Virus record (IMG/VR): IMGVR_UViG_3300044809_000038
Span: 1 to 58,968 of that record
Length of the DNA: 58,968 nt
Reading direction: 5' to 3' (one strand)
DNA from: a virus
Taxonomy: Duplodnaviria > Caudoviricetes
Shown: positions 8,636-22,807 of the stretch, piece by piece
Numbering within the stretch: position 1 is the first letter of the stretch
Layout: every line of letters begins with the position of its first letter
The notes under the pieces: model-generated
Database searches by the model: none
Told to the model about the DNA's origin: nothing
What the model saw: only the letters and a program-made list of their open reading frames with translations
Translations under genes and position numbers: made by a program

Positions 8636-8680
8636 CGATGCACCCGGCTCCGGGGTATGAACCCAGAGCCGGGTGCATCG
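8636..8680. terminator. 15-bp inverted repeat, probable terminator
   Basis: cgatgcacccggctc...gagccgggtgcatcg, intergenic. Confidence 0.6.
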
Positions 8681-8781
8681 CACCAATGCCGGCCGCCGCA
8701 AGCACGAAGCCGATCTTTATGGACAGCGGCAGCGTCGGCGTCTCGGCCTTCGGGGTCAGGCTGCCTCGGCGAACCGGCCGA

Positions 8782-9090: not shown

Positions 9091-9470
9091 TGCATTGCTC
9101 CTTCCATGATCGGGAAGTGCTCGACGGCCGTGGCGCCGTTCGGGTGGTGGATGGCCAGCAAGTGGCCCTGCCGAAAAACCCACACGGCGTTCTTCGTGTA
9201 GGCGTACGCGTAGTCGGTTTCCGCCGACGTCGCGTGCTCGTGCGGCCAGGTGCGCTGCGTCGCCCAAGGCGAGCGCGGCCAGTGGGCGTCCTGGTTGGCG
9301 TCCAGCATGATCTGCCGGACGCGCTCCAGATACGAGTCCTCGGTGTAGTTGCCGCGCGCCTCACGGAACAGGTTCTCGCTGGCCACGTCGGCCGGCGAGC
9401 CGTAGTCGGTCACGCTGCCCAGCCACTGGGCGCCCGGTCCGCGGCCCAGGTAGAAGTCTGCCTTCGCCAT
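9087..9470 (-). CDS. Hypothetical protein
   Basis: RBS AGGAG; ADFYLGRGPGAQWLGSV. Confidence 0.65.
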   Translation of the reverse strand: MAKADFYLGRGPGAQWLGSVTDYGSPADVASENLFREARGNYTEDSYLERVRQIMLDANQDAHWPRSPWATQRTWPHEHATSAETDYAYAYTKNAVWVFRQGHLLAIHHPNGATAVEHFPIMEGAMQ

Positions 9471-9479
9471 GATCGTCTC

Positions 9480-9899
9480 CTAGAGCTGCGTGGCCGTCCA
9501 CACGTGGCCGTCGTCCCCGCGAAGCAGCAGCCCCCGCTGGGTAGTACCGATGCACTCGAACAACGCGCCGACCGAGGCCGGCGTCACCCTGGTCTGCTCC
9601 TGCTTGGCTGCCTCCGCCCTGGCTGCGTACGCCCGGTCGGCGCGGCCGACGTCGCGTGCGGCACGAGCAGCCGCGTTCGTCTCGGTCGTAGTGAGCTTCG
9701 GGCCGCGGTAGATCCAGGCTCGACCCTGGCTGACGATCTCGATCTCCAGGCTGTCGGTGAGCTGCAACACCGTGCGCTGCATCGAACCGCGATTCACTCC
9801 TGAGAACCGCGTCAGCAACTCCTCAATGCTCACGACGGCGTCGCGCCTGCTGTCCAGGTACGCGGCGACGTCGCCGATGATCGTTACCCCTCGTGACAT
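9480..9899 (-). CDS. Possible winged-helix DNA-binding protein
   Basis: Helix pattern followed by VSQGRAWIYRG wing. Confidence 0.5.
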   Translation of the reverse strand: MSRGVTIIGDVAAYLDSRRDAVVSIEELLTRFSGVNRGSMQRTVLQLTDSLEIEIVSQGRAWIYRGPKLTTTETNAAARAARDVGRADRAYAARAEAAKQEQTRVTPASVGALFECIGTTQRGLLLRGDDGHVWTATQL

Positions 9900-10143
9900 T
9901 TTCAGTCCTTCCCTCAGTGGGTTGTCCCATCTCGCCGGCCGTGTGCCGGGAAGTCTTGTTGGCGACATGCCAGTAGCCGCAGCCGCCCTGGTGGAGACAC
10001 TCGTAGGTGACGAACTCGGCCTGCTCCATGCCGCGCAGTCGCTGGGCCATCTCGTCCATCCGGGTGATGCCGCGCGCCGCGTCGTCCCGCGACAGGTACT
10101 TGATCTTCCCTGGCGTCAGCTCGCACTGCGGTCGACGCTGCAC
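9823..10143 (-). CDS. Hypothetical protein with Cys/His motif
   Basis: GKIKYLSRDDA...YECLHQGGCGYWHV. Confidence 0.55.
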   Translation of the reverse strand: MQRRPQCELTPGKIKYLSRDDAARGITRMDEMAQRLRGMEQAEFVTYECLHQGGCGYWHVANKTSRHTAGEMGQPTEGRTENVTRGNDHRRRRRVPGQQARRRREH

Positions 10144-10145
10144 CG

Positions 10146-10484
10146 TCAGCCGTCCGCCGTCAGGCCGTTGGCCGTGCTTTCAAGGTCAGTCTTGGCGCCC
10201 TCCAAGGTCTCGGCCAGGTGGGCGCTCAGGTCCAGCGCGGTCGCCATGCGCTCCTCGATCTGGTCGATGAAGTCAGTAGCACGCGAGAACCATTCGCCGA
10301 GGTCGGCCTGCTGCTTGCCGCCGACCAGGCCGAGGTATCCACGTATCGCATCGACCCTGGCCCGAACCATCTCGATCTTGTCCAGGTGCAGGTCGGAGCG
10401 CACGCGTTGGGCCGTCCTCACCGCGTCCTGGCACAGCTCGGCCGCTGCCCTGAGGGCACTGGCAGCCTCGTCTGTGGCGCCCAC
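10146..10484 (-). CDS. WXG100-like helical-hairpin paralog (dispersed copy)
   Basis: MGATDEAASAL start shared with the 15.5-17.4 kb array. Confidence 0.55.
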   Translation of the reverse strand: MGATDEAASALRAAAELCQDAVRTAQRVRSDLHLDKIEMVRARVDAIRGYLGLVGGKQQADLGEWFSRATDFIDQIEERMATALDLSAHLAETLEGAKTDLESTANGLTADG

Positions 10485-10762
10485 TACAGCAGCCCTCCGT
10501 CGAGCTCGCTGGCCTGGGCGTGATTACAGATCCAGCCTTCTTCCGTCATGCGGACCATGTCGCCCTCCTCGAAGCGCTGGTGGCACTTCTTGCTGGAGCA
10601 GCGGCCGGCGAACCGCGCGGGCACCCAGCTCGGCGACGTGACGACTTCTGGCTCTGCTGGCTCGTCGAGCCAGCTCGGGTCGAGGTCGGGCAGCCCCTTG
10701 CACCATGAGCAGTCGCGCAGCACCATCTCGTGCTTACATCTCTCCTCGTCCACGGTGATCAC
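10484..10762 (-). CDS. Zn-binding hypothetical protein
   Basis: CKHEM...CSWC and ARFAGRCSSKKC...CNH. Confidence 0.6.
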   Translation of the reverse strand: MITVDEERCKHEMVLRDCSWCKGLPDLDPSWLDEPAEPEVVTSPSWVPARFAGRCSSKKCHQRFEEGDMVRMTEEGWICNHAQASELDGGLL

Positions 10763-10932
10763 GAGTTTCTCCTGTCGATGGCGCGATAGAGCTGGTAGGC
10801 GCCCACGCACACTCCGGTCAGGGCCATCAGTACGACAGCAGCCATGACGATCACCTCGGCGAGGCCGACGAAGATCATGACGCAGACGGTCCATAGCACG
10901 ATGCGCGCCGGGCCGATGTGATGGCAGTGCAC
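10759..10932 (-). CDS. 57-aa membrane protein
   Basis: Hand translation MHCHHIGPARIVLWTVCVMIFVGLAEVIVMAAVVLMALTGVCVGAYQLYRAIDRRNS; fills the gap between neighbours. Confidence 0.5.
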   Translation of the reverse strand: MHCHHIGPARIVLWTVCVMIFVGLAEVIVMAAVVLMALTGVCVGAYQLYRAIDRRNS

Positions 10933-11130
10933 TCAGACCACCCAGCCGAAGACCCACAAGACGGCGGTGAGCAGGTGGTTGAGCATGTTCAGCGCGAACC
11001 AGCCGGTCGTCCGGACGACGTACCAGACGTACGCGTCGGCTAGGTGGCCTGGCTCGGTGGCGGCGAAGAACAGCACGATCAGTGCGACGATGCTGATCGC
11101 CGCGGTGCGTCTGGTGGCCTGCTCGGTCAT
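10933..11130 (-). CDS. Small membrane protein
   Basis: Hydrophobic; first gene after a promoter, with the conserved leader motif. Confidence 0.6.
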   Translation of the reverse strand: MTEQATRRTAAISIVALIVLFFAATEPGHLADAYVWYVVRTTGWFALNMLNHLLTAVLWVFGWVV

Positions 11131-11166
11131 TGGGTTCTCCCGTGTCCGGTTGTTCCGTACAGCTCG

Positions 11167-11195
11167 ACTCTAGACCCCGAATCGGGGTGTGTCTA
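11167..11195 (-). promoter_or_regulatory. Promoter TAGACA-17-TAGAGT with palindromic spacer
   Basis: GACCCCgaatcGGGGTG at 11173-11189. Confidence 0.8.
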
Positions 11196-11690
11196 GCCTT
11201 CGCGCATGAGCCGGATCGACTCGTCGGCGTCGAGGTCGGCCGTGACTCGCCGGCGCAGGTCGGTCGTCGAGATCTCGCGCTGTCGGTTGACGTAGCACAG
11301 CTCTATGCCGTGCTCGTAGAGCCACGTCGGCGTGAACTGCATCTGCGCGTAGTAGTCGCGGCCCGTCTCGGGTGCCCAGTCCGAGCCGATGATCACCAGG
11401 TCCGGCTTCGCCTCCAGGATGGCCGGCTTGCTGTCGGCGCCGCTCACGTTGGGTATCACCTTGCTCACGTAGCGGATCGCCTGGAGCACCTCGGCGCGCT
11501 CCTCGTAGCTGCACACGGGGCGCCGACCCTTGAACTCTTCGACGAACTCGTCCGTGTTCAAGCCGACGATGACCTGGCCGTACGGGTGCCCGGCGGCGAT
11601 ATAGCACTGCCGCAGGAAGTCGACGTGGCCGGCGTGCAACAGGTCGAACGTGCCGCCGGTGTAGACGACGAACGATGTCCGCGGTCGCAT
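11193..11690 (-). CDS. Cytidylyltransferase (TagD/RfaE-like)
   Basis: YTGGTFDLLHAGH, IVGLNTDEF, IGSDW, ISTT motifs. Confidence 0.9.
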   Translation of the reverse strand: MRPRTSFVVYTGGTFDLLHAGHVDFLRQCYIAAGHPYGQVIVGLNTDEFVEEFKGRRPVCSYEERAEVLQAIRYVSKVIPNVSGADSKPAILEAKPDLVIIGSDWAPETGRDYYAQMQFTPTWLYEHGIELCYVNRQREISTTDLRRRVTADLDADESIRLMREG

Positions 11691-12412
11691 CACGCCACGC
11701 TCCGTTCCAACTCGCGCCGCAAAGCCGCGACGTCGTCCATCAACCGGGTCGCCTCGTACCGGTAAAAGATCGCCTGGTCGCCGTTCGGATCCTGCTGGCG
11801 GTAGGTGTCGTCCCACTCGCCCTTGTTGACCAGCGGATGCAGGTGCTCGATCACGACGTCGGCGCGATAGGTGAGGTTCGTCGACTCGCCCCAGAGTTTC
11901 CACACGTTGTCGACGTACAGGTGGCCGAGCTCGGGCGGTGCGATGTAGCCCAGCGCGCCGAACACGGTCGAGGTCATCATGCAGGAGGTGGGGATGGACG
12001 CTCCGTGCACGAGGTCGTTGCCGTAGGCGAAGCTGACCGGCCGCTCCCTCAATTCGCCCCAGAGCCGCCAATCCCAGGCTTCGGCACGGGGCACGTGGTC
12101 ATCGCCCAAAACAGCCAGAGCGAAGGACTCAGGGGCCGCTAAGGCCGCCATGCGGTTGAGCGGATAGACAAAACCGCGGTGCACGACGGGGGCCGGCATG
12201 ATCATCAGCCGAACGTCGAGATTGGCGTAGCCGCCCATCTGATTCACTACCCAGCGGTAGCCGCCCATGTCGTCGACCATCGGATCGTCGTCACACACGC
12301 CCACCAGCAGCTGCACGTCCTTCAGGGCACAGGTGCTGTGACATGCCTCGATCAGTCGGGCCAGGCCGCGCGGCCGGCCGCGCGTCGGCACCAGGATCGT
12401 CAGCTCTCTCAT
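11690..12412 (-). CDS. GT-A (family 2-like) glycosyltransferase
   Basis: ILVPTRGRP, LGDDH, HLYVDN, IEHLHP. Confidence 0.85.
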   Translation of the reverse strand: MRELTILVPTRGRPRGLARLIEACHSTCALKDVQLLVGVCDDDPMVDDMGGYRWVVNQMGGYANLDVRLMIMPAPVVHRGFVYPLNRMAALAAPESFALAVLGDDHVPRAEAWDWRLWGELRERPVSFAYGNDLVHGASIPTSCMMTSTVFGALGYIAPPELGHLYVDNVWKLWGESTNLTYRADVVIEHLHPLVNKGEWDDTYRQQDPNGDQAIFYRYEATRLMDDVAALRRELERSVA

Positions 12413-12522
12413 CAGAAGACTCCGTTCTCGCCGACGCCCCAGCAGTCCACTGCCAGGAACAGCACCGCCAGTAGCCAGGCGCCGAGCAGACAGAGTTTCG
12501 GCTGGCGCAACAGGATCGTCAC
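12412..12522 (-). CDS. 36-aa membrane microprotein
   Basis: MTILLRQPKLCLLGAWLLAVLFLAVDCWGVGENGVF; coupled at both ends. Confidence 0.45.
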   Translation of the reverse strand: MTILLRQPKLCLLGAWLLAVLFLAVDCWGVGENGVF

Positions 12523-13511
12523 CGGTCCACCAGCGTCCAGTGCGACCAGGCCAGCATGATCACGTCAGCCAGGGGCGACACGTACGACAGCTGGATGTCG
12601 TGGCCGCTCGATACCAGCACGGTCGTCAGGTGCGTGTGGAAGTAGGGCGCCTCCGACGCGCGGAACGTCGCCTGGCTGGCGCAGTTGTCGACGTCGGCTC
12701 CGCAGTAGTGATCGTCCGTGTTGCCGTCCATCAGCAGCACCGGTACCCGGATCTTGATGGACAGGGCGCCCTGGTCGGTCGGCCGGGTCTGCGCCTCACC
12801 CAGGGCCAGCGTGTCCTCCGTGGCCTCGTCGTAGGCGATGACGCGCGGATCAGCCTTCGTCGGGTCGTACACCAGCGCGGCGCGCGTGCCGGGCCTCGAC
12901 GTCAGGTAGCCGGCGTCGAGGCCGGCGAAGCGCTCCAGGTTGCTGGCTGGGTACGTCGTGGCCTTGCTGACGGCGTTGATGACCGAGGTCGTGGTGTGAC
13001 CTGAGCCGGTCAGGATCACCGCATCGGCGTCGTGCGGGTGGGCGGCCAGGTCGCCCTCGACGTACAGCGACCCGTAGCTGTGACCGACGAGCTCGACCGG
13101 ACCGGCGTGCAGCCGGCGAGCCTGCTGGATCACCTGGTGCAGCGCGTCGACCTGCACGGCGTAGGTGTCGTTCGCTGCCAGCTTCGGCCGGAACGAGGCG
13201 CCGTCGCCGATGCGATCGAGGTTCAGCGTGGCGTAGCCGGCTGCGTTCGCCTTGTCGACGTAGGAGTAGGCGCCGCCGAACTGCCGCCAATCCCAGTAGT
13301 CGTGGTTGTAGGTGCCGCCGTGCACCAGGACCTGCAACACCCGATTGGCGCGGCGGGGCACGCAGTACTGCGCCGACACCGCGCCCTGCGTTGTGCCGAG
13401 GCGCACTGTCGAGCAGCTGCGGCCATGGTCGGCTGCCTGGGCGACGGGACCGGCCAGCGGCAGTAGCGCCACCGCCAGCGCGACCGTCAGTAGCTTCTGT
13501 CGGATCTTCAT
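12519..13511 (-). CDS. Secreted alpha/beta hydrolase
   Basis: Signal peptide, LVHGGTY, GHSYG nucleophile elbow, C-terminal GH. Confidence 0.85.
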   Translation of the reverse strand: MKIRQKLLTVALAVALLPLAGPVAQAADHGRSCSTVRLGTTQGAVSAQYCVPRRANRVLQVLVHGGTYNHDYWDWRQFGGAYSYVDKANAAGYATLNLDRIGDGASFRPKLAANDTYAVQVDALHQVIQQARRLHAGPVELVGHSYGSLYVEGDLAAHPHDADAVILTGSGHTTTSVINAVSKATTYPASNLERFAGLDAGYLTSRPGTRAALVYDPTKADPRVIAYDEATEDTLALGEAQTRPTDQGALSIKIRVPVLLMDGNTDDHYCGADVDNCASQATFRASEAPYFHTHLTTVLVSSGHDIQLSYVSPLADVIMLAWSHWTLVDR

Positions 13512-13894
13512 CCAGCTCTCCTTGAGGCCTCGGCCCAGGTCTCGATCCGGTAGGACGGCGCGACCAGGAATGGCTTCAGGTCGGCCGGGCAGGTGATCAG
13601 GTGTGACGCGCGGCGGACCCGGACGGCGCGCACGATCCGGAGGGCGTGCTCGTCGGTGAAGCCATCGGCCAGCACCGTGACCCCGTTGGGCCACTGGTGG
13701 AAGTGTTGCGCCGGCTCGCTCAGCGCACCCAGGATGATCTTCTCGGGCCGAGCCGGAATGTAGATCTTCGGCTCGGCGCTGCCGTAGCGACGCCGGTTGA
13801 CCCGTGCCCGGTACCACCCTGGCGGCCTGATCGCGAACAGGTAGCCGGCCACGACAGTGGCGAGCGCCAGCACAATCTGGACAAGGTCACTCAT
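13508..13894 (-). CDS. Membrane-anchored hypothetical protein
   Basis: N-terminal TM; coupled to neighbours. Confidence 0.55.
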   Translation of the reverse strand: MSDLVQIVLALATVVAGYLFAIRPPGWYRARVNRRRYGSAEPKIYIPARPEKIILGALSEPAQHFHQWPNGVTVLADGFTDEHALRIVRAVRVRRASHLITCPADLKPFLVAPSYRIETWAEASRRAG

Positions 13895-14106
13895 ATCCGG
13901 CTTCCTCTCTTCGGCATCGGCGTGCCCAGGAGCAGCAGCGCACCCAGGTCGGGCGCAGCAATCTTCAAGTAGGCATCCAGGGCCTGGGCCACGACGAACG
14001 CGCCGGCCGCGGTCTGTGCAGCGCCCACGAAGATGTCCTGATCGCCCTCGTCCGGCTCGATGTAGACGGCACAGCTGTTCTTCGTGCCGGTCCTGCCACG
14101 GCTCAT
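13891..14106 (-). CDS. Hypothetical protein
   Basis: Tightly packed between neighbours. Confidence 0.5.
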   Translation of the reverse strand: MSRGRTGTKNSCAVYIEPDEGDQDIFVGAAQTAAGAFVVAQALDAYLKIAAPDLGALLLLGTPMPKRGSRI

Positions 14107-14111
14107 GTCGA

Positions 14112-14714
14112 CTACCACCTGTCCGGTTGGCCTGATGTGTTCGCGCCGTGGTGATACCAGAGCCACGAGCGATCGGGACGGTGCACGATCTTGGCGCCGA
14201 GCTCGATACAGCGCAAGGTGAAGATCCAGTCCTCGCCGCCGGACAGGCCGGCCTCGGGCGTGTCCGGCGTAGCGGCCGGCCACGCGAAGCCAGCTTCCTT
14301 CGCCAGCTCTGTCCGGACCAGCGTGACGATCGTCGTCTGGTGCGGACTGGCCGGGTCGAACGTCTTACCGAAGTGGCCGAGCGGATCGGAGCCGAGCGGT
14401 GAGCCATCGGCATCGACCACGACGTAGTAGCTGTAGACGTAGTCGGCGCCGGTCGCCTCGGCCGTCTCGGCCAGGCCCTCCAGGTGCCAGGGCATCATCG
14501 CGTCGTCGTCGTCGAGAAAGGCCGTCCAGGGCGTCGAGGAGTGCGACAAGGCGAGTCCGCGGTTGATGGCCGCGCCTTCGTGCTCCTGGTCCATACGGAC
14601 GGACAGGGCCCCAGGACAGAGCACCTGAGACCGCACCGACTCGACGGCGCGCTGGAGCATGGCTTCGCGGGTCGGAATCGTCGGAATGACCACCGTGATG
14701 TCCTGGCCCCTCAT
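14112..14714 (-). CDS. Glycosyltransferase family 2
   Basis: VVIPT, AFLDDDD, GEDW motifs. Confidence 0.9.
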   Translation of the reverse strand: MRGQDITVVIPTIPTREAMLQRAVESVRSQVLCPGALSVRMDQEHEGAAINRGLALSHSSTPWTAFLDDDDAMMPWHLEGLAETAEATGADYVYSYYVVVDADGSPLGSDPLGHFGKTFDPASPHQTTIVTLVRTELAKEAGFAWPAATPDTPEAGLSGGEDWIFTLRCIELGAKIVHRPDRSWLWYHHGANTSGQPDRW

Positions 14715-15085
14715 TCTCGACCGCCCTTCACGTCACCGATGATCGCTACGAGTCGATCGTTCATCTGGTCGGCGCTGGAGCGCGTGCCGACATTGATCAT
14801 GAGGGCGTTCTCCAGGCGCCGCACCAGTGCGGCCTGGTCACTGGGCAGCGCGGGCGGCACCGCCTCATAGAAACCCAGCTCGTCGAGCTTCACCGTCCAG
14901 CCGCCACGCCGGTTGCCGTCGGCCAGCACCTCGTCGGCGAGCTGGCACGCGGACGTCCTATCGCCGTTGCGGAGCCACTCCATCGTGAGGTACCGCAGCG
15001 CACCAACCACCATGGCCGGGTACATCGCCTCGGCCAACACTGCGGCCTGCTCGATCTTCAGTTGCTCATCCCTCAGGTCGGGCAT
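14711..15085 (-). CDS. Hypothetical protein
   Basis: RBS AAGGGG; coupled to the GT2 gene. Confidence 0.55.
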   Translation of the reverse strand: MPDLRDEQLKIEQAAVLAEAMYPAMVVGALRYLTMEWLRNGDRTSACQLADEVLADGNRRGGWTVKLDELGFYEAVPPALPSDQAALVRRLENALMINVGTRSSADQMNDRLVAIIGDVKGGRE

Positions 15086-15518
15086 CGCCGGTCCCCTTCG
15101 TTCCGGGCCACGGGCCGTCGAGCTCGTGGCGGACATGATCGTCGATGCGGGCCCGCCACAGTCCGGGCCAACCCTGCGGCTCGTCGGGGAGAGCGGACCC
15201 GGTGAGCCCCAGCTGCTCCAAGAGGCGTGCCGGGTCGATCGGCGCCTGCTCGACGGCCGTAGCCAGCGCGGCACGCGTCTGCTCGACCTCCGAGCGGTAC
15301 CGATTCAGCATGGCGTTGATCAGCGTCTGGGCGTGCGCACGCTCCATGCCGAGCTCCTCGACGGCTTCGTCCAGGCCGATGAACCACTTCACCCAGCACT
15401 CGACCCAATAGCGGAACAGGGATGTCTTGTTGAACTTGTCGCGGTCCTCGTCGCTGGACAGGATCGCTCGCATCACGGCGTCGCGAATCTCGATCGCCCG
15501 ATCCATTCGACCGCTCAT
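15066..15518 (-). CDS. Hypothetical protein
   Basis: ATGA overlap with the upstream gene. Confidence 0.55.
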   Translation of the reverse strand: MSGRMDRAIEIRDAVMRAILSSDEDRDKFNKTSLFRYWVECWVKWFIGLDEAVEELGMERAHAQTLINAMLNRYRSEVEQTRAALATAVEQAPIDPARLLEQLGLTGSALPDEPQGWPGLWRARIDDHVRHELDGPWPGTKGTGDARPEG

Positions 15519-15766
15519 GAGCCGGCCAGGCGTCGCGCTGCCTGCTCCAGGTCGGAGCCGAGCTGGAGCATCAGCGAAATCAGCCCTTCGAGCTCGCGCA
15601 TCGCCTCGCCGAATCGGCTGCCGAACTGCCGAAGGTACTCGTCGCCGGCCGCATCGACGAAGGTCACGCCCGACGACAGAGCCTCCCTGACGATCTGGAG
15701 CGGGTTCGTGTCGCACGTGTCGCTCGCGGCGGCCAGCGCCACCGCGGCCTCCTCCATGCTGCCCAT
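15515..15766 (-). CDS. WXG100-like helical-hairpin paralog
   Basis: MGSMEEAAVAL...AAGDEYLRQFG...LEQAARRL. Confidence 0.6.
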   Translation of the reverse strand: MGSMEEAAVALAAASDTCDTNPLQIVREALSSGVTFVDAAGDEYLRQFGSRFGEAMRELEGLISLMLQLGSDLEQAARRLAGS

Positions 15767-16278
15767 CAGTCGGTCCTCTCGTCTCGTCCACTGAACTGCT
15801 TGTTGACGTGCCGCACGAGCTCCATCCAGCGGGCCCGAGTAAGCAGCACGCTCGACTCTTCCGGCACCTCGCCGACGAGGGCCGTCAGGACGATCTCGAC
15901 CACGGCCCGATCGGTGGCCGAGCCGCGCTCGTGCACTGCGGCCTTGATGCTGGTCCTGGCGCCGTCGTAGCTCCAACCGAACCATCCGCCATCCGTGATG
16001 GCTGCCGCCGCGGGATCGGTACCGCTCCTGGCTGGCTCGCTGCGCCCAGCGCGCTCCCCGGCCACGAGCTTTGCGGCCAGGTTGTCGTAGACATCCTGCA
16101 CAGCCTGCGTGATGATCATCTTGGCGATCAGCACCTGGCCCGCCTGGCCGGCCTTGCCCTCGTCGGCCAGGTCGCCGGCCTGGAGCTCCAGTGTCGACAG
16201 CGCCTCGGCGATCGGCTTCAGCAGCTCGCGTTCACGGTGTAGGTCGGCCAGCGCGGCCGTCTCGTCGTAGTCCGTCAT
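15766..16278 (-). CDS. Hypothetical protein embedded in the paralog array
   Basis: Coupled at both ends; helical N-half. Confidence 0.6.
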   Translation of the reverse strand: MTDYDETAALADLHRERELLKPIAEALSTLELQAGDLADEGKAGQAGQVLIAKMIITQAVQDVYDNLAAKLVAGERAGRSEPARSGTDPAAAAITDGGWFGWSYDGARTSIKAAVHERGSATDRAVVEIVLTALVGEVPEESSVLLTRARWMELVRHVNKQFSGRDERTD

Positions 16279-16541
16279 CGGCCCATCCCTCCGCCTTGCA
16301 GCAGCTGGGCGGAGGCCTCGTCGAGCTCGGCTCGCACCGCCCCCATCTCGGCCTGCACCTCGTCCAGGTTCTCGATGAAGCGCTCAATCTTCGAAGCCCA
16401 GTTGGTGTACGCGGCGTCGCCGACGACAGGCAACAGCCGTAGTGCCTCCCGCAGATCACTACCGACGGCCTGGAGCGCGTCGTCGCGAACGAGTGCGCCG
16501 ATGGTGCCCAGCAGCGCGCCTGCGTCTTCCCAATGTCCCAC
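16275..16541 (-). CDS. WXG100-like helical-hairpin paralog
   Basis: MGHWEDAGALL...VVGDAAYTNWA...LDEASAQL. Confidence 0.6.
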   Translation of the reverse strand: MGHWEDAGALLGTIGALVRDDALQAVGSDLREALRLLPVVGDAAYTNWASKIERFIENLDEVQAEMGAVRAELDEASAQLLQGGGMGR

Positions 16542-16560
16542 TTTTGTCTCCTGGTGACGG

Positions 16561-16597
16561 GCGCTCCAGCGGTCCCGATCCTGTACCGCTGGAGCGC
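16561..16597. terminator. 13-bp hairpin in leader/intergenic region
   Basis: gcgctccagcggt...accgctggagcgc. Confidence 0.5.
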
Positions 16598-16602
16598 GCC
16601 TG

Positions 16603-16631
16603 ACTTTACACCCTTGCTAGGGGTGCGATTA
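16603..16631 (-). promoter_or_regulatory. Promoter (-10 TAAAGT, weak -35) with palindromic spacer
   Basis: CACCCTtgctaGGGGTG at 16609-16625. Confidence 0.65.
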
Positions 16632-16901
16632 GACGGAGCCGCTCAAGCTGCCGCCGGCCGCGATGACTTCGCCCGCCTGCTGGAATGCCTCCTGGCTGGA
16701 CAAGATGATGGCCTGGAGCTCCTCCGCCGCTGCCTGGATCTGCTGGAGCCTGGGCGCGCACTGCTGTGCGACGATCTCGCCGGCCTGGGACATGTACCCG
16801 TTGCAGGCCTCGACCTGCCGCAGCACCTCCTGGCACGGCGCGGCGTTCAGCTCCTGGCTGGCGGCGATGATGGCGTTGGCGGCGTCTTCGATGTGACCCA
16901 T
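16629..16901 (-). CDS. WXG100-like helical-hairpin paralog
   Basis: MGHIEDAANAI...QAGEIVAQQCA...FQQAGEVI. Confidence 0.6.
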   Translation of the reverse strand: MGHIEDAANAIIAASQELNAAPCQEVLRQVEACNGYMSQAGEIVAQQCAPRLQQIQAAAEELQAIILSSQEAFQQAGEVIAAGGSLSGSV

Positions 16902-16905
16902 TTGC

Positions 16906-17175
16906 TCACTCTCCTGATATCGACATGCCCGCGCGCACGCGGTGCGATGCCGTTCGTAGTTGATCGTTCAGGTTGTAGATCAGCGGCAGCATCTGGTCGG
17001 TCAGCGCGACGATCTGCTGGAGGTCTTCGTTGAAGGCGTCGACCGCCGGCTGGCCGAGCAGAATGAGCGCGTCGTACACGGCGCCCAGGTCCTGTTTCTG
17101 GGCGTAGATGTGGCCGTTGTGCAGGATGCCTGACGTGCGCATCAGCAGGTCGGCAGCGTCGTCGAGCGCGCCCAT
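16906..17175 (-). CDS. WXG100-like helical-hairpin paralog
   Basis: MGALDDAADLL...LGQPAVDAFN...LRTASHRV. Confidence 0.6.
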   Translation of the reverse strand: MGALDDAADLLMRTSGILHNGHIYAQKQDLGAVYDALILLGQPAVDAFNEDLQQIVALTDQMLPLIYNLNDQLRTASHRVRAGMSISGE

Positions 17176-17432
17176 CAGGTCCCCCTTGAGGTGAGCTTGG
17201 CGACCTCGTCCAGCATTTCCTGGTAGGCCTGCCGCAGCATTTCGGCGTGCTGTTTGAGCGTCATCGCCGAGTGGCCGACACCGATGCCCCAGTGGCGCGA
17301 ATAGGCCTCACCGGCGACGTCGATGAACTGCTGAGCCGTTTCCAGCTCGTCGGCGATTCGGGCTATCACCTCGGGCTGCATCAGGTTGCCGGCCCGCACC
17401 AGCATCTGGGCGGCCTCGTCCGTACTACCCAT
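17175..17432 (-). CDS. WXG100-like helical-hairpin paralog
   Basis: MGSTDEAAQML...VAGEAYSRHWG...MLDEVAKL. Confidence 0.6.
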   Translation of the reverse strand: MGSTDEAAQMLVRAGNLMQPEVIARIADELETAQQFIDVAGEAYSRHWGIGVGHSAMTLKQHAEMLRQAYQEMLDEVAKLTSRGT

Positions 17433-17462
17433 TACGGGCCCCTCTCTCGGCTGTCTCGCACG

Positions 17463-17551
17463 GGGGGACGCCAGGATTCGAACCTGGAACCTCGGTCGCA
17501 CCGGTTGCCCGGCGGGCCCTGCCGCGCTCTGCCGCTTTGAGCTACGTCCCC
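17463..17551 (-). ncRNA. tRNA-like RNA B (89 nt), anticodon arm replaced by an extended GCAA-capped hairpin
   Basis: GGGGACG/CGTCCCC acceptor, GCTC/GAGC D stem, AGGTT variable loop, CCAGG-TTCGAAT-CCTGG T arm; 32-nt central arm. Confidence 0.8.
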
Positions 17552-17688
17552 AGGTGGCCGTCCCCGCCCGAGTTCGGGAGACGGCCCGTGAGCCTTGTCG
17601 CCGTCGCTCCATCCTGTCCCGGCGACCGAAGTCTGTAGGCGCTGCGGAAGGCGTGCGGGCAACCGTGCACGGGTGGCTCTGTGTTGCG

Positions 17689-17785
17689 TGGTGGCGCCCG
17701 GAGTTGAACCGGGACACAGGGACTCGCGTCGATCGCGGCCGGGAGTTGCCCCGCCGCCCTGGCTCTGCCGTTGAGCTACGCCACC
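17689..17785 (-). ncRNA. tRNA-like RNA A (97 nt), anticodon loop replaced by a branched insert
   Basis: GGTGGCG/CGCCACC acceptor, GCTC/GAGC D stem, AGGG/CCCT stem enclosing 35 nt, CCCGG-TTCAACT-CCGGG T arm. Confidence 0.8.
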
Positions 17786-17790
17786 GTGGT

Positions 17791-17833
17791 TGTCGGGCCC
17801 CTGGCCGGGGGAGGCGCGGCCAGGGGCCCGACA
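17791..17833. terminator. Perfect 17-bp inverted repeat (terminator or processing hairpin)
   Basis: tgtcgggcccctggccg...cggccaggggcccgaca; no U-tract on the minus strand. Confidence 0.6.
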
Positions 17834-17838
17834 GGCTA

Positions 17839-19080
17839 TCAGGCGTTCAGCAGGTGCAGGGCCCGCATCGCCACGTTCTCCAGGCCCTCGGCCCGGTCGG
17901 CCGACTTGAGGGTCTGGCTGAACGAGGTGATGGCGTTGGCGATACCGCCGGCCGTGGCCTGGCCCGAGCGCAGGAAGTGGCTGATGATGCCGACCTGCTC
18001 GTCCTGGCTGAAGCCCAGCTTCGGCGCCAGCACCTTGACGGCCTGCTCCGGGTTGGCGACCGGCTTGCCGGCCAGGCCTTCGATCTCGGCCACCTGCTGG
18101 CTCAGGAACTCGGGCGACAGCCACAGCTTGACCAGGTCACGAGTCTTGCCGGTGATGACGTCGAGCATCTTGCGGTTGGTGTCGTCGCTCCACACGACGG
18201 CGCCTTCGTTGAGCCGGCTGCCCAGGTGCACGCGGTTCTCGGCCAGCAGCGGGATCGTCAGGCCGTTCTTGCACAGGGCCACGACCAGGCGCGGCATCAG
18301 CTCGAAGCGGCCGTTACCGGTCTCGCTGTTGCGGAACTGGAAGCCGGCGTGCACGACCGGCTCCTTGCCCGGCTCGTAGTCCATGCCCTCGGCCTTGGCC
18401 GCCGCGCGCCATTCTTCGACCGTGCGGCCGTGATGGCGCTGCTGCTCGATCGCGGGGTTGCGGAACGGCGACTCGTAGTCGCCCAGCAACACGGGTGCCA
18501 GCGCGGCCACGGCCGGCGCGTGCAAGTTGACGTACATCGACCGGTCGGTCAGGTCTGCGGAGGTGACCTGCACGCTCACGCCGGCCTCCTTGATGCCCTG
18601 AAGCGATGCCATCAGGACGTCCAGGTGGTCGATGATGCCGAACCGGTCGGACAGGAAGGCGCGCAGTACGCCCTCCCCGCCCTCGTCGCCGCGGAAGCAG
18701 CGGAGCAGGAACGACCGATCGTCGGCCGGGAACAGCACCTCGCGGTCCTCGCCGCGGACCATGGTCTTGCCGCGCAGCCAGCCGTTCACGTTGGCGTCGT
18801 ACAGGTACGGCCGACTACGCAGGGTCCGCATGTACGTGGTGGGGATGCCGAGCTTGCTGCCGATGCCCTCGTCAGCGATCGAGGTCGGGCGGTACACGCC
18901 GTCGACCTGGGTCACGCCGGTCTCGTCGACCCGTGCTTCGACGCCCTTGACGATCAGGTTGCCGTCCTGGCTGCGGATCTTGCTGGCCGGCACGTTGATG
19001 TCCAGCTTGCGCGCCTGCTGCTCCGACAGGATCTTGACAAGCTCACCGGCGGTGGCGTTGCGGGCGTTCGTGGCGATCAT
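17839..19080 (-). CDS. DUF932-like phage/plasmid protein
   Basis: KLGIPTTY, RAFLSDRF, NSETGNG, RLVVALCKNG, HLG motifs. Confidence 0.75.
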   Translation of the reverse strand: MIATNARNATAGELVKILSEQQARKLDINVPASKIRSQDGNLIVKGVEARVDETGVTQVDGVYRPTSIADEGIGSKLGIPTTYMRTLRSRPYLYDANVNGWLRGKTMVRGEDREVLFPADDRSFLLRCFRGDEGGEGVLRAFLSDRFGIIDHLDVLMASLQGIKEAGVSVQVTSADLTDRSMYVNLHAPAVAALAPVLLGDYESPFRNPAIEQQRHHGRTVEEWRAAAKAEGMDYEPGKEPVVHAGFQFRNSETGNGRFELMPRLVVALCKNGLTIPLLAENRVHLGSRLNEGAVVWSDDTNRKMLDVITGKTRDLVKLWLSPEFLSQQVAEIEGLAGKPVANPEQAVKVLAPKLGFSQDEQVGIISHFLRSGQATAGGIANAITSFSQTLKSADRAEGLENVAMRALHLLNA

Positions 19081-19115
19081 TGGTTCTTCCTCTCGGGTTG
19101 TCCCGGACGTCGGTC

Positions 19116-19352
19116 TCAGGCGTCCTTTACGTCGATAGCCAGGATCCGGCTGGTGGCGACATGGCCGGCGATGGGTCCGCTTGGACGCTGCACCATAACC
19201 GTGTCGTTCGGGCTGGGCAGGATGTTGCCGGCGACCACCTGGAGCGTGTCCAGAATCAGCTTGCCGGCGAAGCCCAGGGCCAACCACTCGGCGATTTCGG
19301 CCTGGTCGGTGATGCGCACCGCACCCTTGGCGAGTCGTAGAGTGCTCAGCAT
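19116..19352 (-). CDS. Hypothetical protein
   Basis: First gene after a promoter; conserved leader motif. Confidence 0.6.
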   Translation of the reverse strand: MLSTLRLAKGAVRITDQAEIAEWLALGFAGKLILDTLQVVAGNILPSPNDTVMVQRPSGPIAGHVATSRILAIDVKDA

Positions 19353-19394
19353 GTCGGTTCTCCCTCGCGGGTTGTTCCTGGCCTGACAAGAACG

Positions 19395-19423
19395 ACTCTA
19401 CACCCCGGTTCGGGGTGTGTCTA
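19395..19423 (-). promoter_or_regulatory. Promoter TAGACA-17-TAGAGT with palindromic spacer
   Basis: CACCCCggttcGGGGTG at 19401-19417. Confidence 0.8.
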
Positions 19424-19426
19424 GTC

Positions 19427-19918
19427 TCAGATCGGCAGGCCCAGCGCCACGCGCCTGGCCTTCACTTTTGCCACCATGTCCGTCTCGGGCCGGTATGCCC
19501 GGCCGCCGGGCGAGCGCCAGCGGCCGTCCTCCAGCTTGACCCAGTCCCCTGGAGCGGATGTGTCGGGTCGACGCTGACCCGGACCGTAGCCCACGCCGGG
19601 CGGCGGGTAGTCGCGGCGGCTCGGGCGCACGCGCGGCGGCGCCATCGGGTCGCCGGCCAAGGCCGCGGTGAGCTCGTCGAGATCGTAGGCGTCGCCCTTC
19701 CAGCGCGAGTACGCCGCGACCTGCGCTTCGGTGAACGCCGAGCCGACCGCCCTGGCCAGGTCGTGCTCTGTCCGCACGGTGACCGCCCAGCCTCGGGCGG
19801 CCGGCGTGCTGATGCGCAGGTGTCCGGTGGACAGCTCCTCGATCTGGACGAGCACCGACCGCACCTGATGCGCTACCGGTGCAGGACCCTGGACAGTAGG
19901 ACGCTCGATGCGCGCCAC
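19427..19918 (-). CDS. Hypothetical protein
   Basis: RBS AGGAGG; C-terminal DGRWRSPGGRAY. Confidence 0.6.
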   Translation of the reverse strand: MARIERPTVQGPAPVAHQVRSVLVQIEELSTGHLRISTPAARGWAVTVRTEHDLARAVGSAFTEAQVAAYSRWKGDAYDLDELTAALAGDPMAPPRVRPSRRDYPPPGVGYGPGQRRPDTSAPGDWVKLEDGRWRSPGGRAYRPETDMVAKVKARRVALGLPI

Positions 19919-19926
19919 GCCGCCTC

Positions 19927-21705
19927 CTAGGGCCGTGTGCGGATGTTCATGCCGTGGACGGTCGACGACACCTTCGTTTGGATCTGGCGCTCCCTGGTGG
20001 CCTTGGGAGCCTGGAGTGAGCCCGTGCCGGCGCGGCTCAGCTCGGTGATCAGGTGGACGTCGGCGTCCATGCGGTCGGGGGAGTCCTGGCTGGGTAGCCA
20101 GGTTGCCATCTGGTGCTCCAGCTCCATGAAGTGCCCGACATGGTGCACGGCGCCCGACGAGTACATGGGCGCGATGAACTCGGCGCGCAGCCGCTTGTTC
20201 ACGATCGGGTTGACCTGGCGCGTCGGCGGACCGGCGGCCGGCCAGCTCAGCAGGATCGGCACATTCGGCCACATCATCCGCAGCTGGTCGTCGATCGCCC
20301 AGCGGTCCTGGAGGCTGTCCTCGGGCACGACGAGCTGAGCCAGGGCGTGCTCAGCGGCCATCTTGTCCGGGGCGACCGGCCAGGGCTGCCGGGTGATCGA
20401 GCGGTAGCACTCGTCGAGGATGCGCGCCTGGCGCCTGATCAGCTTCCACTCGGTGCGGATCGAGCGGCGCAGCCCGGACAGCGACTTCTCGTAGGCCAGG
20501 GCCGAGCCGCCCCACTTCGCCATCGCGAAGATCGCTCGCCTGATCCACTCGCCGACCGTGTAGTGCCCGGAATCGTCGGCCAGCACGTAGTAGTCCCCGT
20601 CGGCCCCGATGCCGCCGGTGATGATGCCGGCCTCGTCGCCGGCTCCCGTGTTGTCGGCCGGGTCGACCATCGTCAGCACGCTGGCCATCTCGGGCGCGGC
20701 CGACACCCGGTTGCGCTCGAACCATTGGCGCTTGAAACTTCCGCCCTCGGGCGCACTGGGAACGCCCTGGTACAGCGCGTTCCACCAGCGGACGCCGATC
20801 TGGTCGGGCTTCGCCTCCCACTCCTCGCGGGTGCGACCGCGGGCCGAGACGAGCCACTCGCCCGGCTCGCGGCCCAGCGGATCGTTCTGGCCGGCCTGCG
20901 CCGGGATGTTGAGCCGGGCGTAGATCGGCGTGACCCGCGCGTCGTCCTCCTTGATCAGCCAGCCGGACAGGTCGTCCTCGTGCCAACGGGTTTGGATGAC
21001 GATCACGATGGCGCGGCCAGACAGTCGCGCGCTGGCCACCGCCTGGAACCAGTCCTTCGCGGCCTGCCGATAGACCGGGCTGTCGGCCTGCTTGGCGTCC
21101 TTCAGCGGGTCGTCGACGATCAGCACGTCGACGGGCCGGCCGGTGAACGCGCTGCCGACGCCGACGGCCAACATGCCGCCGGCACCCTTGCGGCCCGGTA
21201 TGTCCGTCAGGGCCCAGTTGGTCTGCTGTGCGCGGTCCGGGTCCAGGGTGAGGCCGAGCACGTCGACCCGGTCGAGGTCCTTCCGCTCGCCTTTGTAGCC
21301 GGCGCCGTGCAGCTCGATGAACTGCCGCACGGCCAGGGTCGGCTGGCTGGCGATGCCCTGCTCGTAGCTGGCCACGGCGATGCGGAGGCTCGGGTCGCGC
21401 AGCAGCAGCCATAGGCTGCCGTCCTGACTGATGCGGGTGGTTTTGCCCTCCTGCGGCGGCGTGCTGATGATCCAGCGGCGCTGCACGCCGTGCCACGCCT
21501 GGGTAATGACCTCGTCAAGCTTGTCCAGCAGCGGCGTCTGCACGCTGTCGCGGCGCAGGAACTGGGCCAGGTGGCCCGGCATCGGGAACCGCGCGATGGC
21601 CTCACGCCGGCGCAGCACCCGGTCGAGCCGGGTCTGGAACAGCTTCCGCTCCGTGGCCGACAGGTCGCCCACAACCTGCTGGACGACGTCGCCGGTCGAG
21701 GTCAC
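19927..21705 (-). CDS. terL: Terminase large subunit
   Basis: TPPQEGKT Walker A, LIVDDP Walker B, QTRWHEDD, VDPA nuclease motif, SPDRMDA. Confidence 0.95.
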   Translation of the reverse strand: MTSTGDVVQQVVGDLSATERKLFQTRLDRVLRRREAIARFPMPGHLAQFLRRDSVQTPLLDKLDEVITQAWHGVQRRWIISTPPQEGKTTRISQDGSLWLLLRDPSLRIAVASYEQGIASQPTLAVRQFIELHGAGYKGERKDLDRVDVLGLTLDPDRAQQTNWALTDIPGRKGAGGMLAVGVGSAFTGRPVDVLIVDDPLKDAKQADSPVYRQAAKDWFQAVASARLSGRAIVIVIQTRWHEDDLSGWLIKEDDARVTPIYARLNIPAQAGQNDPLGREPGEWLVSARGRTREEWEAKPDQIGVRWWNALYQGVPSAPEGGSFKRQWFERNRVSAAPEMASVLTMVDPADNTGAGDEAGIITGGIGADGDYYVLADDSGHYTVGEWIRRAIFAMAKWGGSALAYEKSLSGLRRSIRTEWKLIRRQARILDECYRSITRQPWPVAPDKMAAEHALAQLVVPEDSLQDRWAIDDQLRMMWPNVPILLSWPAAGPPTRQVNPIVNKRLRAEFIAPMYSSGAVHHVGHFMELEHQMATWLPSQDSPDRMDADVHLITELSRAGTGSLQAPKATRERQIQTKVSSTVHGMNIRTRP

Positions 21706-22204: not shown

Positions 22205-22807
22205 CTACCAGCCGATGATCTCGGCGAGCCGCTCGGTGCAGCCCTGTAGTCCTGCCGAACCCAGGTTGCTCATCTCGTGCACGTGCAGCAGCGGGCGCTC
22301 CAGGGCGGCGTGCTCGGCGTATTCGAAGAAGTTGCGCGACCGCGTGAACTGCCCGCGCACCCATGATTCCTTCTGGTGACTGCCGCGCTCCTGGCAGCGG
22401 CGCTCGACGATGTCCGGCGACGCCGTGACCAGCACCACGTGCGCCTCGATCTCGGCTGCCATGAGCGCCTCTACGAAGCGGCGCACGCCGAGCCGGGCGC
22501 CCTCGCCGAGCAGCACGGGCGCCTCGGCCGCCGCGACCCCGCTGACGATCCACTCCTCGACCGGCACGATGGCGCTCATCGCCATGGCGTCGGTGCCGGG
22601 GAAGCCGGCCGGGTGCTTGCCGGCACGGGCGCCGAGCTCGACCGCGATGGCACCAGGATCGTGCCGATGGGCCGGCTGGAACAGCCACTCGCGGCGCGGC
22701 TGCCCCTCGTCGGGCGTGCTCTCGACCCGGCCGTAGGGACTCGTGAGGCGACTCATGATCGCCGACTTGCCGACCGCCGGGCCGCCGGTCAGGTACAGGG
22801 CCTTCAC
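22205..22807 (-). CDS. P-loop kinase, probable 5-hydroxymethyluracil DNA kinase
   Basis: LTGGPAVGKS, FPGTDAM, LGEGARL, RGSHQKESWVRG; gene context. Confidence 0.8.
   Translation of the reverse strand: MKALYLTGGPAVGKSAIMSRLTSPYGRVESTPDEGQPRREWLFQPAHRHDPGAIAVELGARAGKHPAGFPGTDAMAMSAIVPVEEWIVSGVAAAEAPVLLGEGARLGVRRFVEALMAAEIEAHVVLVTASPDIVERRCQERGSHQKESWVRGQFTRSRNFFEYAEHAALERPLLHVHEMSNLGSAGLQGCTERLAEIIGW

Follow-up and report, generated by a model that had tools for sequence, protein, structure and literature searches.

The DNA analysed here (the window) is a stretch of 58,968 nt spanning the whole of a Caudoviricetes record (IMG/VR IMGVR_UViG_3300044809_000038), whose source is a soil phage of high-GC bacteria. 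The sequencing runs that contain the sequence are soil metagenomes, one of them possibly the source of the record, with no RNA run listed. Five co-directional ORFs encoding proteins of 83–90 aa are present on the minus strand at 15515–17432, as a sequence-only reading had described, and the N-terminal MG..., glycine-turn and C-terminal strings it quoted are all found in the five proteins. Its "array of five" holds for the paralogues, but an unrelated 170-aa ORF that it did not mention interrupts the series and a sixth paralogue lies at 10146–10484. The features are:

17462–17551: tRNA-Ala(ggc), 90 nt, called by ARAGORN, upstream of the array
17175–17432, minus strand: W1 (P0001), 85 aa, MGSTDEAA..., subtype A; family profile E 1.1e-24
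16906–17175, minus strand: W2 (P0002), 89 aa, MGALDDAA..., subtype B (GQPAVDAF; tail ...GMSISGE)
16629–16901, minus strand: W3 (P0003), 90 aa, MGHIEDAA..., subtype B (tail ...GGSLSGSV)
16542–16628, minus strand: intergenic RNA stem-loop between W3 and W4, from folding against shuffles
16275–16541, minus strand: W4 (P0004), 88 aa, GTG start, (M)GHWEDAG..., subtype B, following an 87-nt gap
15766–16278, minus strand: interposed ORF (P0006), 170 aa, not a family member
15515–15766, minus strand: W5 (P0005), 83 aa, MGSMEEAA..., subtype A; family profile E 1.9e-25
10146–10484, minus strand: W6 (P0008), the sixth paralogue, 112 aa, GTG start, (M)GATDEAAS..., subtype A

The array ORFs are real coding genes, given the synonymous excess in W2 and W3, the Shine–Dalgarno motifs and the translational coupling. 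Each of the five is preceded by a Shine–Dalgarno-like purine run, and most are coupled through 1- or 4-nt overlaps, with the W2 start overlapping the W1 stop by 1 nt, the W5 start overlapping the stop of the 170-aa ORF and the W5 stop overlapping the start of the next gene (15066–15518). Compared with soil-metagenome contigs, W2 and W3 together differ by 11 synonymous and 1 non-synonymous changes (W2, 4 of 4 synonymous; W3, 7 versus 1) and W4 by 9 synonymous and 7 non-synonymous, all counted among the 40 listed of 189 differences. GC3 in W3 is 0.92. The RNA between W3 and W4 folds into a stem-loop with a G+C-rich core stem of 13 pairs and no U tail (−41.5 kcal/mol, z −4.7; none of 200 shuffles folds as well), which may be a terminator, an attenuator or a processing site; a promoter and terminator scan of the coding strand of the array returned nothing useful.

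The five paralogues are mutually homologous, as had been proposed, and their description as otherwise very divergent is borne out by pairwise identities of 17–27%. All 10 pairs score at least 3.5 standard units (z) above 500 shuffles, at most 4 of which reach the observed score, and profiles of subtypes A and B built with no window protein in either align over 85 columns (hhalign probability 99.2%, E 2.5e-19). W1, a subtype A protein, carries the signature AGxxY...WG and ends in ...RGT; subtype B has a conserved C-terminal tail, R[VI]xxGGx[ILVM]. Run against 1.84 billion proteins, a profile of the five paralogues gave 51 matches at E ≤1e-3, 48 of them 74–92 aa long and aligned end to end (47 counted as further proteins) and the remaining three long proteins aligning only as repeated single helices. 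The sixth paralogue, in which both helices are longer than in the others, was found with the family profile (E 5.6e-4) and again, in two pieces, in a second profile search (E 5.1e-4 and 7.0e-4). A protein 91% identical to W1 is present in other assemblies. The nearest neighbours of the window copies are proteins of other genomes rather than each other (W1 with P0012, W3 with P0013 and W6 with P0039, the last grouping with support 95/89), and the window paralogues appear to be old, anciently diverged copies.

The family is real and rare. Its members are nearly all metagenomic, the single NCBI member (P0050) coming from Saccharomonospora iraqiensis. Neither blastn with the 3-kb array region nor tblastn with protein P0016 (E ≤1) gave a match among 50,697 GenBank phage records, a search of IMG/VR with protein P0021 gave none, and no family member was found among the 46 loci matching a degenerate N-terminal DNA pattern in IMG/VR or among the at least 119 loci matching a longer DNA pattern in metagenome contigs. 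The five window proteins have only scattered matches in Pfam and PHROGs (E 0.003–0.4) and, judged by the lack of any significant Pfam, PHROGs or NCBIfam match, the family is undescribed.

Within the window, the array lies between the TerL gene (19927–21705) and the portal gene (5137–7947). An unrelated second phage (L024/G001) carries seven family copies, all of subtype B and five of them in tandem directly behind an HTH gene, where they head an operon that goes on to encode a primase and a Dda-like helicase; the tail and lysis genes of that phage lie on the other strand. No family member occurs in two complete phages with TerL proteins about 52% identical to that of the window, none within 10 kb of 16 TerL-related IMG/VR loci, and a scan of genome contigs by TerL alignment gave one MAG contig, which is without the family. 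The TerL relatives conserve the order kinase, TerS-like, TerL and p19427, beyond which the DNA is non-homologous. The family is thus not part of the conserved morphogenesis set, since syntenic phages with related TerL proteins do without it, and the soil actinophages that carry it have 6–7 copies per genome in regions that are variable accessory or early ones. A conserved module of hairpin gene and following "MTD..." ORF was considered and rejected, the 12 neighbouring ORFs of the two phages being dissimilar (best phmmer E about 0.1).

The interposed 170-aa ORF is coupled to both W4 and W5. It does not match the family profile (hhalign probability 0.3%) or Pfam (E ≤1), it and the downstream ORFs belong to no Pfam or PHROGs family, and its predicted fold is of low quality (pLDDT 45). 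Its known close relatives number just two, with global identities of 85% and 79% (87% and 79% by BLASTP), and these share contigs with W1- and W3-like proteins. The earlier statement that no toxin or immunity gene is visible is upheld in so far as no toxin domain, immunity gene or FtsK/EccC-like ATPase was recognisable among the window ORFs scanned (60 with Pfam, 30 with PHROGs), but it overlooked this ORF inside the array. The "tRNA mimics" placed upstream come down to one tRNA-like gene, the only one called, and Rfam reports no tRNA at gathering score. A joint module of array and tRNA is not supported: in the second phage no tRNA lies within 10 kb of the array, and a relative that lacks the family still has a tRNA beside a phrog_1362-like gene.

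The helical-hairpin fold that had been anticipated is predicted by the AlphaFold2 model of W1 (pLDDT 89.9), in which helices 2–18, 20–40 and 42–84 make up a two-helix hairpin; the other members align without large gaps. Conserved positions comprise an N-terminal [DE][DE]AAxxL...A block, a turn at A40 (39 of 48 members) followed by G41 (48 of 48), an aromatic residue at 48 and a C-terminal AAxR..GG block; in the models these residues are structural, and the remaining sequence is free to vary. The homodimer model scores 0.84, against 0.00 for the best of three controls, a mark attained by 20 of 30 proteins solved as homodimers and by 1 of 23 solved as single chains, although these benchmark counts hold only roughly here, a custom alignment having been used. 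Three dimer runs show at least 96% contact agreement and a partner pLDDT of at least 90, and the predicted contacts (33–40 with 10–17, and 58 with 58) describe an antiparallel four-helix bundle, in which the N-terminal block of one copy packs onto the turn region of its partner and the interface takes in conserved columns 7, 8, 11, 14, 40, 41 and 48. The score may stem from the predictor's memory of solved helical bundles. Every member is net negatively charged (51/51; median pI 4.49; about −6 per chain), and a 19-aa hydropathy window reaches 1.6 in 1 of 51.

Foldseek found no match at E ≤1e-3 in the PDB or BFVD. The top VIA-align matches are hairpins of ESCRT-III (Snf7/CHMP4B core), Rad50 and prefoldin, with Z values of 8.3–10.2, and there is no WXG100 chain within the top 50. 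Since these values lie within the range common for helical models (the tool places that level at a Z of about 13), they speak for shape and not for kinship or function. Such generic hairpins, Rop variants included, share the two-helix geometry over 77–85 residues but have no sequence relation to the family.

Sequence comparison points, weakly and repeatedly, to the WXG100 proteins. Among single members, PF06013 is the most frequent weak Pfam match (7 of 48 at E ≤1, best E 0.015), with EspC matched by 3 and WXG100_2 by 2, and Apolipoprotein, the next unrelated family, by 4; NCBIfam TIGR03930 matches 9 of 48 (best E 0.0074; next family 2). PF06013 has no match in the window at E ≤10 and none in the second phage at E ≤1. 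The family profile aligns with Staphylococcus aureus EsxA over positions 21–82 (E 7.8e-4, 22.4 bits), the turn falling on WEG and the aromatic at 48 on a Phe. EsxA is equalled or outscored in that PDB profile search by constructs of coronavirus HR1 and by designed coiled coils, so part of the Esx signal is possibly composition or heptad pattern. Among natural single-domain PDB chains, those matched across both helices, in register at the turn, are the WXG100 chains (2vs0, 2vrz, 12fa and 3ogi), the exception being an engineered lengthened Rop (9cfs; positions 11–78 and 19–78); flagellin and spike matches cover one helix only. The label WXG100-like is justified in part: this is the only known family recurrently resembled, and the predicted dimer is Esx-like, but all curated models score far below threshold.

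The claim that the Trp of WxG and the YxxxD/E signal are missing extends across the family. WxG occurs in 4 of 51 members, there at positions 48–50 inside helix 2, and YxxxD/E in the last 30 residues of 2 of 51. HxxxD/ExxhxxxH, an extended form of the export pattern according to PMC3935865, is found in 7 of 51 members, against 6.1 ± 2.4 in shuffled tails. Compared with EsxA and EsxB (PF06013, TIGR03930; S. aureus EsxA homodimer 2VS0/2VRZ), the family shares a length of about 85–100 aa, acidity, a single hairpin, a tandem arrangement of translationally coupled genes, weak similarity of sequence that is collinear and keeps the turn in register, and the antiparallel four-helix-bundle dimer (PMC3935865), which in the family is a prediction. 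A conserved aromatic lies two turns past the loop in the family, on the Phe of S. aureus EsxA, and it may resemble Y51 of ESAT-6 (PMC3935865), a likeness proposed here and not taken from an alignment. The family differs in its A40–G41 turn without Trp, its lack of either export pattern, its own N-terminal MG..[DE][DE]AA and C-terminal AAxR..GG blocks, scores far under the curated cut-offs, and its occurrence in phages at 6–7 copies per genome with no type VII gene nearby. The chances that it branched off from the WXG100/EsxAB superfamily, diverging far and losing the export signals, are on this evidence about even.

Mycobacterium prophages offer a phage-borne parallel in their PEST cassettes (phage-encoded ESX-secreted toxins), which PMC10654092 describes as prophage-expressed units of three or four genes that combine a WXG100 effector with an immunity gene and a polymorphic toxin whose N-terminal domain is a WXG domain. 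Like the family, they provide small, highly polymorphic Esx-kind hairpins in actinobacterial viruses, often beside small genes; the family loci differ in having no recognisable toxin domain or immunity gene, in missing the WXG motif, in arraying their copies, and in that the two phages have non-homologous ORFs behind their hairpin genes. As a separate observation, a PF06013 search of two M. abscessus prophage records, phage Che9c and others found no WXG100 protein; in Che9c, a Pfam scan of gp33–36 identified gp35 as a PE/PPE-Tox-REase-5 protein and recognised no small WXG100 partner, and tblastn with gp35 finds Che9c and Sbash only.

We tentatively favour the reading that these signal-less, Esx-like dimeric hairpins are diversified cytoplasmic accessory binders. 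Each soluble, acidic protein of about 85 aa would form one long helix-turn-helix hairpin, and two hairpins would pack antiparallel into a four-helix bundle. Because the WxG and YxxxD/E export determinants are missing, the proteins would most likely stay inside the infected cell; the conserved subtype B tail could conceivably be an unrecognised targeting peptide, in which case the cytoplasmic reading would be wrong. Multi-copy diversified genes in variable or early phage regions are typical of host takeover and counter-defence, and the presence of anciently diverged copies in such regions suggests that the 6–7 copies may act as small protein binders for one or the other, with a surface that differs from one dimer or mixed dimer to the next.

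The alternative that best withstands the evidence, possible though on balance unlikely, is that the family is unrelated to Esx and that its coiled-coil hairpins came to resemble WXG100 proteins in length, composition and heptads by convergence. Its members would counter restriction or signalling defences as acidic decoys, for instance by mimicking DNA or trapping nucleoid proteins, or as sponges for small molecules. The uniform acidity is in keeping with it, as are structural searches that return generic hairpins only, an ESM Atlas search without a named look-alike (best score 0.83), the position of the second phage's copies at the head of an early operon, and counter-defence elsewhere in the window phage, which carries DNA hypermodification genes and an Acb2/Tad1 hairpin-domain protein (PF24729, E 2.2e-7, 3430–3813). 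A charge of about −6 per chain is, however, modest for a DNA mimic, and the natural PDB matches over both helices (the engineered Rop aside) belong to WXG100 chains. The family has no sequence match to the phage's own PF24729 protein (hhalign probability 0.2%), and PF24729 is absent among the 25 families listed for 48 members.

An engagement with type VII secretion itself seems improbable. The hairpins would form mixed dimers with host substrates of the EsxA/EsxB type and would then either poison EccC-dependent secretion as signal-less decoys or be exported themselves by way of a non-canonical C-terminal tail, perhaps with a neighbour such as the 170-aa protein. The weak but recurrent WXG100 signal, the predicted Esx-like bundle and the conserved subtype B tail are compatible with this, and missing export motifs would suit a decoy. 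WXG100 heterodimer partners are encoded bicistronically (PMC3935865), and W1 (subtype A) and W2 (subtype B) are translationally coupled; mycobacteria have prophage-borne WXG100 cassettes (PMC10654092). An obligate A/B pair is unlikely, however, because the second phage has subtype B only. Moreover, the scanned window ORFs include no toxin domain, immunity gene or EccC-like ATPase, no C-terminal-domain fusion occurs among the 51 matches although proteins of all lengths were searched, and the literature consulted documents no advantage that a phage would draw from a block of type VII secretion.

A structural or assembly role, with the paralogues co-assembling as a hetero-oligomer or filament (ESCRT-III/PspA- or prefoldin-like) or acting as virion or assembly-chaperone proteins, is suggested by the location of the window copies between the terminase and portal genes, by the ESCRT-III hairpins as best VIA-align matches (Z 10.2 and 9.7) and by the several copies in both genomes, but it is very improbable given Z values in the range common for helical models, second-phage copies in a replication operon on the strand opposite the tail and lysis genes, and related-TerL phages of the same local synteny that have no family member.

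Type VII secretion has its universal currency in small helical-hairpin proteins. A phage branch that has kept the dimeric hairpin and lost both export determinants would show the scaffold being reused outside secretion, and such a branch would be a natural set of candidate Esx binders. There is a slight chance that the diversified members heterodimerise with host Esx substrates, blocking or hijacking type VII secretion during infection, and if so they would be the first type VII inhibitors encoded by a phage. Short, soluble and readily expressed, the proteins could yield their binding partners quickly. Even if the link to Esx is convergent, the family is uncatalogued and anciently diversified.

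The array lies in the TerL-portal gap (8000-19900), about 12 kb of accessory genes forming a hypervariable island within the packaging module. The IMG/VR record, with 58,968 bp and a completeness rating of 100%, comes, like its near relatives, from soil metagenomes; its G+C content is 66-72%, and third-position G+C identifies the minus strand as the coding strand of all its genes. Family scans gave the following gene order from terminase to portal:

TerL at 19927-21705, minus strand: TerL, preceded by a TerS-like gene
between TerL and the phrog_1362 gene, minus strand: 147-aa gene
17839-19080, minus strand: phrog_1362 gene
17462-17551, minus strand: tRNA-Ala(ggc), 90 nt, called by ARAGORN, 29 nt upstream of W1
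15515-17432, minus strand: hairpin array (five paralogues, W1-W5, proteins P0001-P0005), between tRNA-Ala(ggc) and the glycosyltransferases
between the array and the portal gene, minus strand: glycosyltransferases and a secreted alpha/beta hydrolase
5137-7947, minus strand: portal gene

Head, tail, lysis, recombination and DNA-hypermodification genes occupy other parts of the record. TerL-related genomes retain the order kinase, TerS-like gene, TerL and p19427 and diverge completely afterwards, which places the array in a variable island of accessory genes that separates terminase from portal. The 147-aa gene is kept in relatives with a TerL about 50% identical, and the DNA beyond it is non-homologous for at least 9 kb.

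The phage carries a DNA hypermodification kit (22205-24788, minus strand; also 3986-4744, 11690-12412, 14112-14714 and 34338-35318) comprising a P-loop nucleotide kinase 3 (PF18751, E 6.5e-20), an amino acid:DNA transferase (PF18724, E 2.1e-15), an HD-domain protein and at least three glycosyltransferases. The alpha/beta hydrolase (12519-13514, minus strand; PF12697, E 1.1e-12), which appears to have a signal peptide (MKIRQKLLTVALAVALLPLAGPVAQA), may target the host cell envelope, as may a GH76 glycoside hydrolase (55506-56615, minus strand; PF03663, E 2.6e-39). A 791-aa protein (1062-3437, minus strand) had no Pfam match in the scan; its residues 212-746 match portal, MuF-like or 'head maturation protease' PHROGs and its N-terminal 178 aa the C-terminal end of the 'RNA ligase' PHROG phrog_2659 (E 5.7e-32). 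The ORF at 3430-3813 (minus strand), whose likely true start is an internal MVDNQH..., matches Pfam PF24729 'Acb2/Tad1, hairpin domain' over residues 49-109 (E 2.2e-7; 31.4 bits, cut-off 27), and the phage therefore seems to carry a cyclic-nucleotide sponge like those directed against CBASS or Thoeris. By hhalign this protein is unrelated to the hairpin family (probability 0.2%).

Analysis of the array confirmed and extended the sequence-only reading. Its five ORFs are present as described, with translations of 85, 89, 90, 88 and 83 aa (W4 starting with GTG), but that reading overlooked a 170-aa ORF between W4 and W5 (P0006, 15766-16278) and a sixth copy, W6 (10146-10484), which the profile of the five detected and which is longer than the array members, with the N-terminus (M)GATDEAAS. 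Identity among W1-W5 is 17-27%; all ten pairs align end to end (z 3.5-12.5 over 500 shuffles), the observed score being reached by at most 4 of 500 shuffles. Each array ORF is preceded by a purine-rich ribosome-binding motif, and 1- or 4-nt overlaps join W1/W2, W4/P0006, P0006/W5 and W5/next gene. Contigs from four other soil runs were compared with the array region; among the 40 listed of 189 differences, classified by hand, W2 and W3 (P0002 and P0003) together carried 11 synonymous and 1 non-synonymous, and W4 (P0004) 9 and 7. Judged from these sequence comparisons, the array ORFs are genes under selection. The 87-nt W3-W4 gap (16542-16628, minus strand) contains a strong RNA stem-loop that has 13 pairs in its G+C-rich core stem and lacks a U tail (-41.5 kcal/mol, z -4.7; none of 200 shuffles folded equally well).

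P0006 has no family match in Pfam or PHROGs, is unrelated to the hairpins by hhalign (probability 0.3%) and has only two close relatives; its fold model is poor (pLDDT 45), with secondary structure called as two long helices and, after them, three short ones. As had been noted, the array has no recognisable toxin or immunity gene. In this it differs from the PEST cassette of Mycobacterium prophages, the closest phage counterpart described, in which a WXG100 effector is combined with a polymorphic toxin and an immunity gene (PMC10654092).

A HMMER profile of W1-W5, searched against one representative per 50% cluster of ~15 billion proteins, retrieved 51 proteins at E <= 1e-3, of which 48 (74-92 aa) matched over their full length and three, long proteins, only as repeated single helices. 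The 48-row family alignment comprised the five window proteins and 43 of the 47 further short matches; the four excluded were three near-duplicates of window proteins and one sequence whose C-terminus was garbled. G41 is invariant, accompanied by A40 (39/48) and an aromatic residue at 48 (43/48); the N-terminal block has [DE] at positions 5 (39/48) and 6 (37/48), A7 (34/48), A8 (32/48) and L11 (39/48), and the C-terminal part R79 (32/48) and G83 (34/48). Two loose subtypes can be distinguished: A (MG..[DE][DE]AA, AGDxY...[WF]G) and B (often MSSE.TA; AGxPAxDx[FW]; tail R[VI]xxGGx[ILVM]). The mutual homology proposed from sequence alone held in profile-profile comparison, subtype A against B giving an hhalign probability of 99.2% (E 2.5e-19) with window proteins removed from both. 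In a poorly resolved tree, window copies group with proteins from other genomes and not among themselves (W1 with P0012, W3 with P0013, W6 with P0039), and their paralogy is, on this sequence evidence, old. All ten members whose origin was looked up come from metagenome assemblies, and at least five of the 43 non-window members come from one other phage contig (L024), so independent genomes are far fewer than 43. P0050, an NCBI 'hypothetical protein' on a 341-kb contig of Saccharomonospora iraqiensis, alone connects the family with a cultured organism and offers a clue to host range. One tblastn query detected no copy in GenBank phages (E <= 1), and no account of phage hairpin arrays like these appeared in the literature searched, mostly short of full text. 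The hairpins form a genuine family that is absent from the catalogues and resembles Esx proteins in architecture.

The suggested helical hairpin was recovered in the AlphaFold2 model of W1 (P0001; five-row alignment, pLDDT 89.9), with helices spanning 2-18, 20-40 and 42-84 and a turn at G41 before the last of them. Two copies of W1, modelled with the 48-row alignment, scored 0.84 as a homodimer in all three runs (best of three controls 0.00); the dimer-score mark is reached by 20 of 30 proteins solved as one-chain pairs against 1 of 23 solved as single chains, counts that hold only roughly here because our own alignment was used. Contact agreement was at least 96% and partner pLDDT at least 90, and the contacts (33-40 with 10-17, 58 with 58) describe antiparallel hairpins in a four-helix bundle. 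Predicted interface residues (6-8, 10-11, 13-15, 39-41, 44 and 47-48) coincide with the conserved N-terminal block, turn and aromatic; in this model the N-terminal motif would be a dimer packing element and not a targeting signal.

Whether the architecture reflects remote homology to WXG100 is, in our estimate, evenly balanced. In single-member Pfam scans WXG100 was the commonest match (7/48 at E <= 1, best 0.015), with EspC matching 3, WXG100_2 2 and the next family, Apolipoprotein, 4; NCBIfam TIGR03930 matched 9/48 (best E 0.0074; next family 2). The family profile matched S. aureus EsxA over positions 21-82 (E 7.8e-4, 22.4 bits), placing the family turn on WEG and aromatic 48 on a Phe, and other ESAT-6-like chains at E 0.03-0.2; the natural PDB chains matched over both helices were ESAT-6-like only, beside an engineered lengthened Rop (9cfs). 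In the same search coronavirus HR1 constructs and designed coils scored as high as EsxA, and no WXG100 score came near any curated Pfam or NCBIfam cut-off for members scanned singly. PF06013 gave nothing on the window at E <= 10 or on the L024 record at E <= 1. Foldseek returned no match at E <= 1e-3, EsxA (TM 0.71) ranking level with unrelated coiled coils; VIA-align ranked ESCRT-III, Rad50 and prefoldin hairpins highest, with Z up to 10.2, a range that VIA-align itself describes as usual for helical models, and BFVD gave unnamed phage proteins only (E 0.46 or worse). Net charge is negative in all 51 members (median pI 4.49), and the leading alternative is an acidic decoy or sponge that resembles Esx by convergence, which we consider less likely.

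The hairpins share the architecture of WXG100 proteins and lack the defining motifs: as first read, WxG (4/51, never at the turn) and YxxxD/E (2/51) are missing. The extended export pattern HxxxD/ExxhxxxH, given by Poulsen et al. (PMC3935865), occurs in 7/51 members, no more than in shuffled tails. By the tests run, these are not WXG100 proteins as that family is defined. A hydropathy window of at least 1.6 occurs in only 1/51 members, and the proteins are predicted to be soluble, without a Sec-type leader; the family has no recognisable export signal. That they are decoys for type VII secretion, the first interpretation offered, is improbable.

The L024 contig (47 kb, 70% complete) encodes seven copies, all of subtype B, five in tandem where a rightward operon begins, immediately behind an HTH gene, and two interspersed downstream, where a Dda-like helicase and a D5-type primase are encoded; tail and lysis genes lie on the opposite strand. 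A structural or assembly role is unlikely because this context is a replication operon. Of the seven (8975-14147, plus strand), three have a small helical ORF immediately behind them. Two of these ORFs start with MTD... and, like P0006 in the window, overlap the hairpin stop by 4 nt; the followers have no detectable similarity among themselves, nor are they related to the window's. At 16 IMG/VR loci with TerL 46-61% identical, no family member lies within 10 kb, and two complete genomes among them have none anywhere.

The tRNA-Ala(ggc) is an unusual tRNA-like gene, since ARAGORN calls it and Rfam at gathering score finds no tRNA, nor any other family, in the whole window. The suggestion that array and tRNA mimics form one module was not borne out: L024 has no tRNA near its array, and a relative without the hairpin family (L012) has tRNA-Arg(tct) beside a phrog_1362-like fragment, so the tRNA goes with phrog_1362 and not with the hairpins.

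Two unrelated phages carry old multi-copy arrays, located in variable or early regions and absent from close relatives, whose products combine a conserved scaffold, modelled as a dimeric hairpin, with a variable surface in acidic, soluble proteins. We infer that the hairpins are an intracellular, diversified set of small binders, which during infection would serve host takeover or counter-defence.
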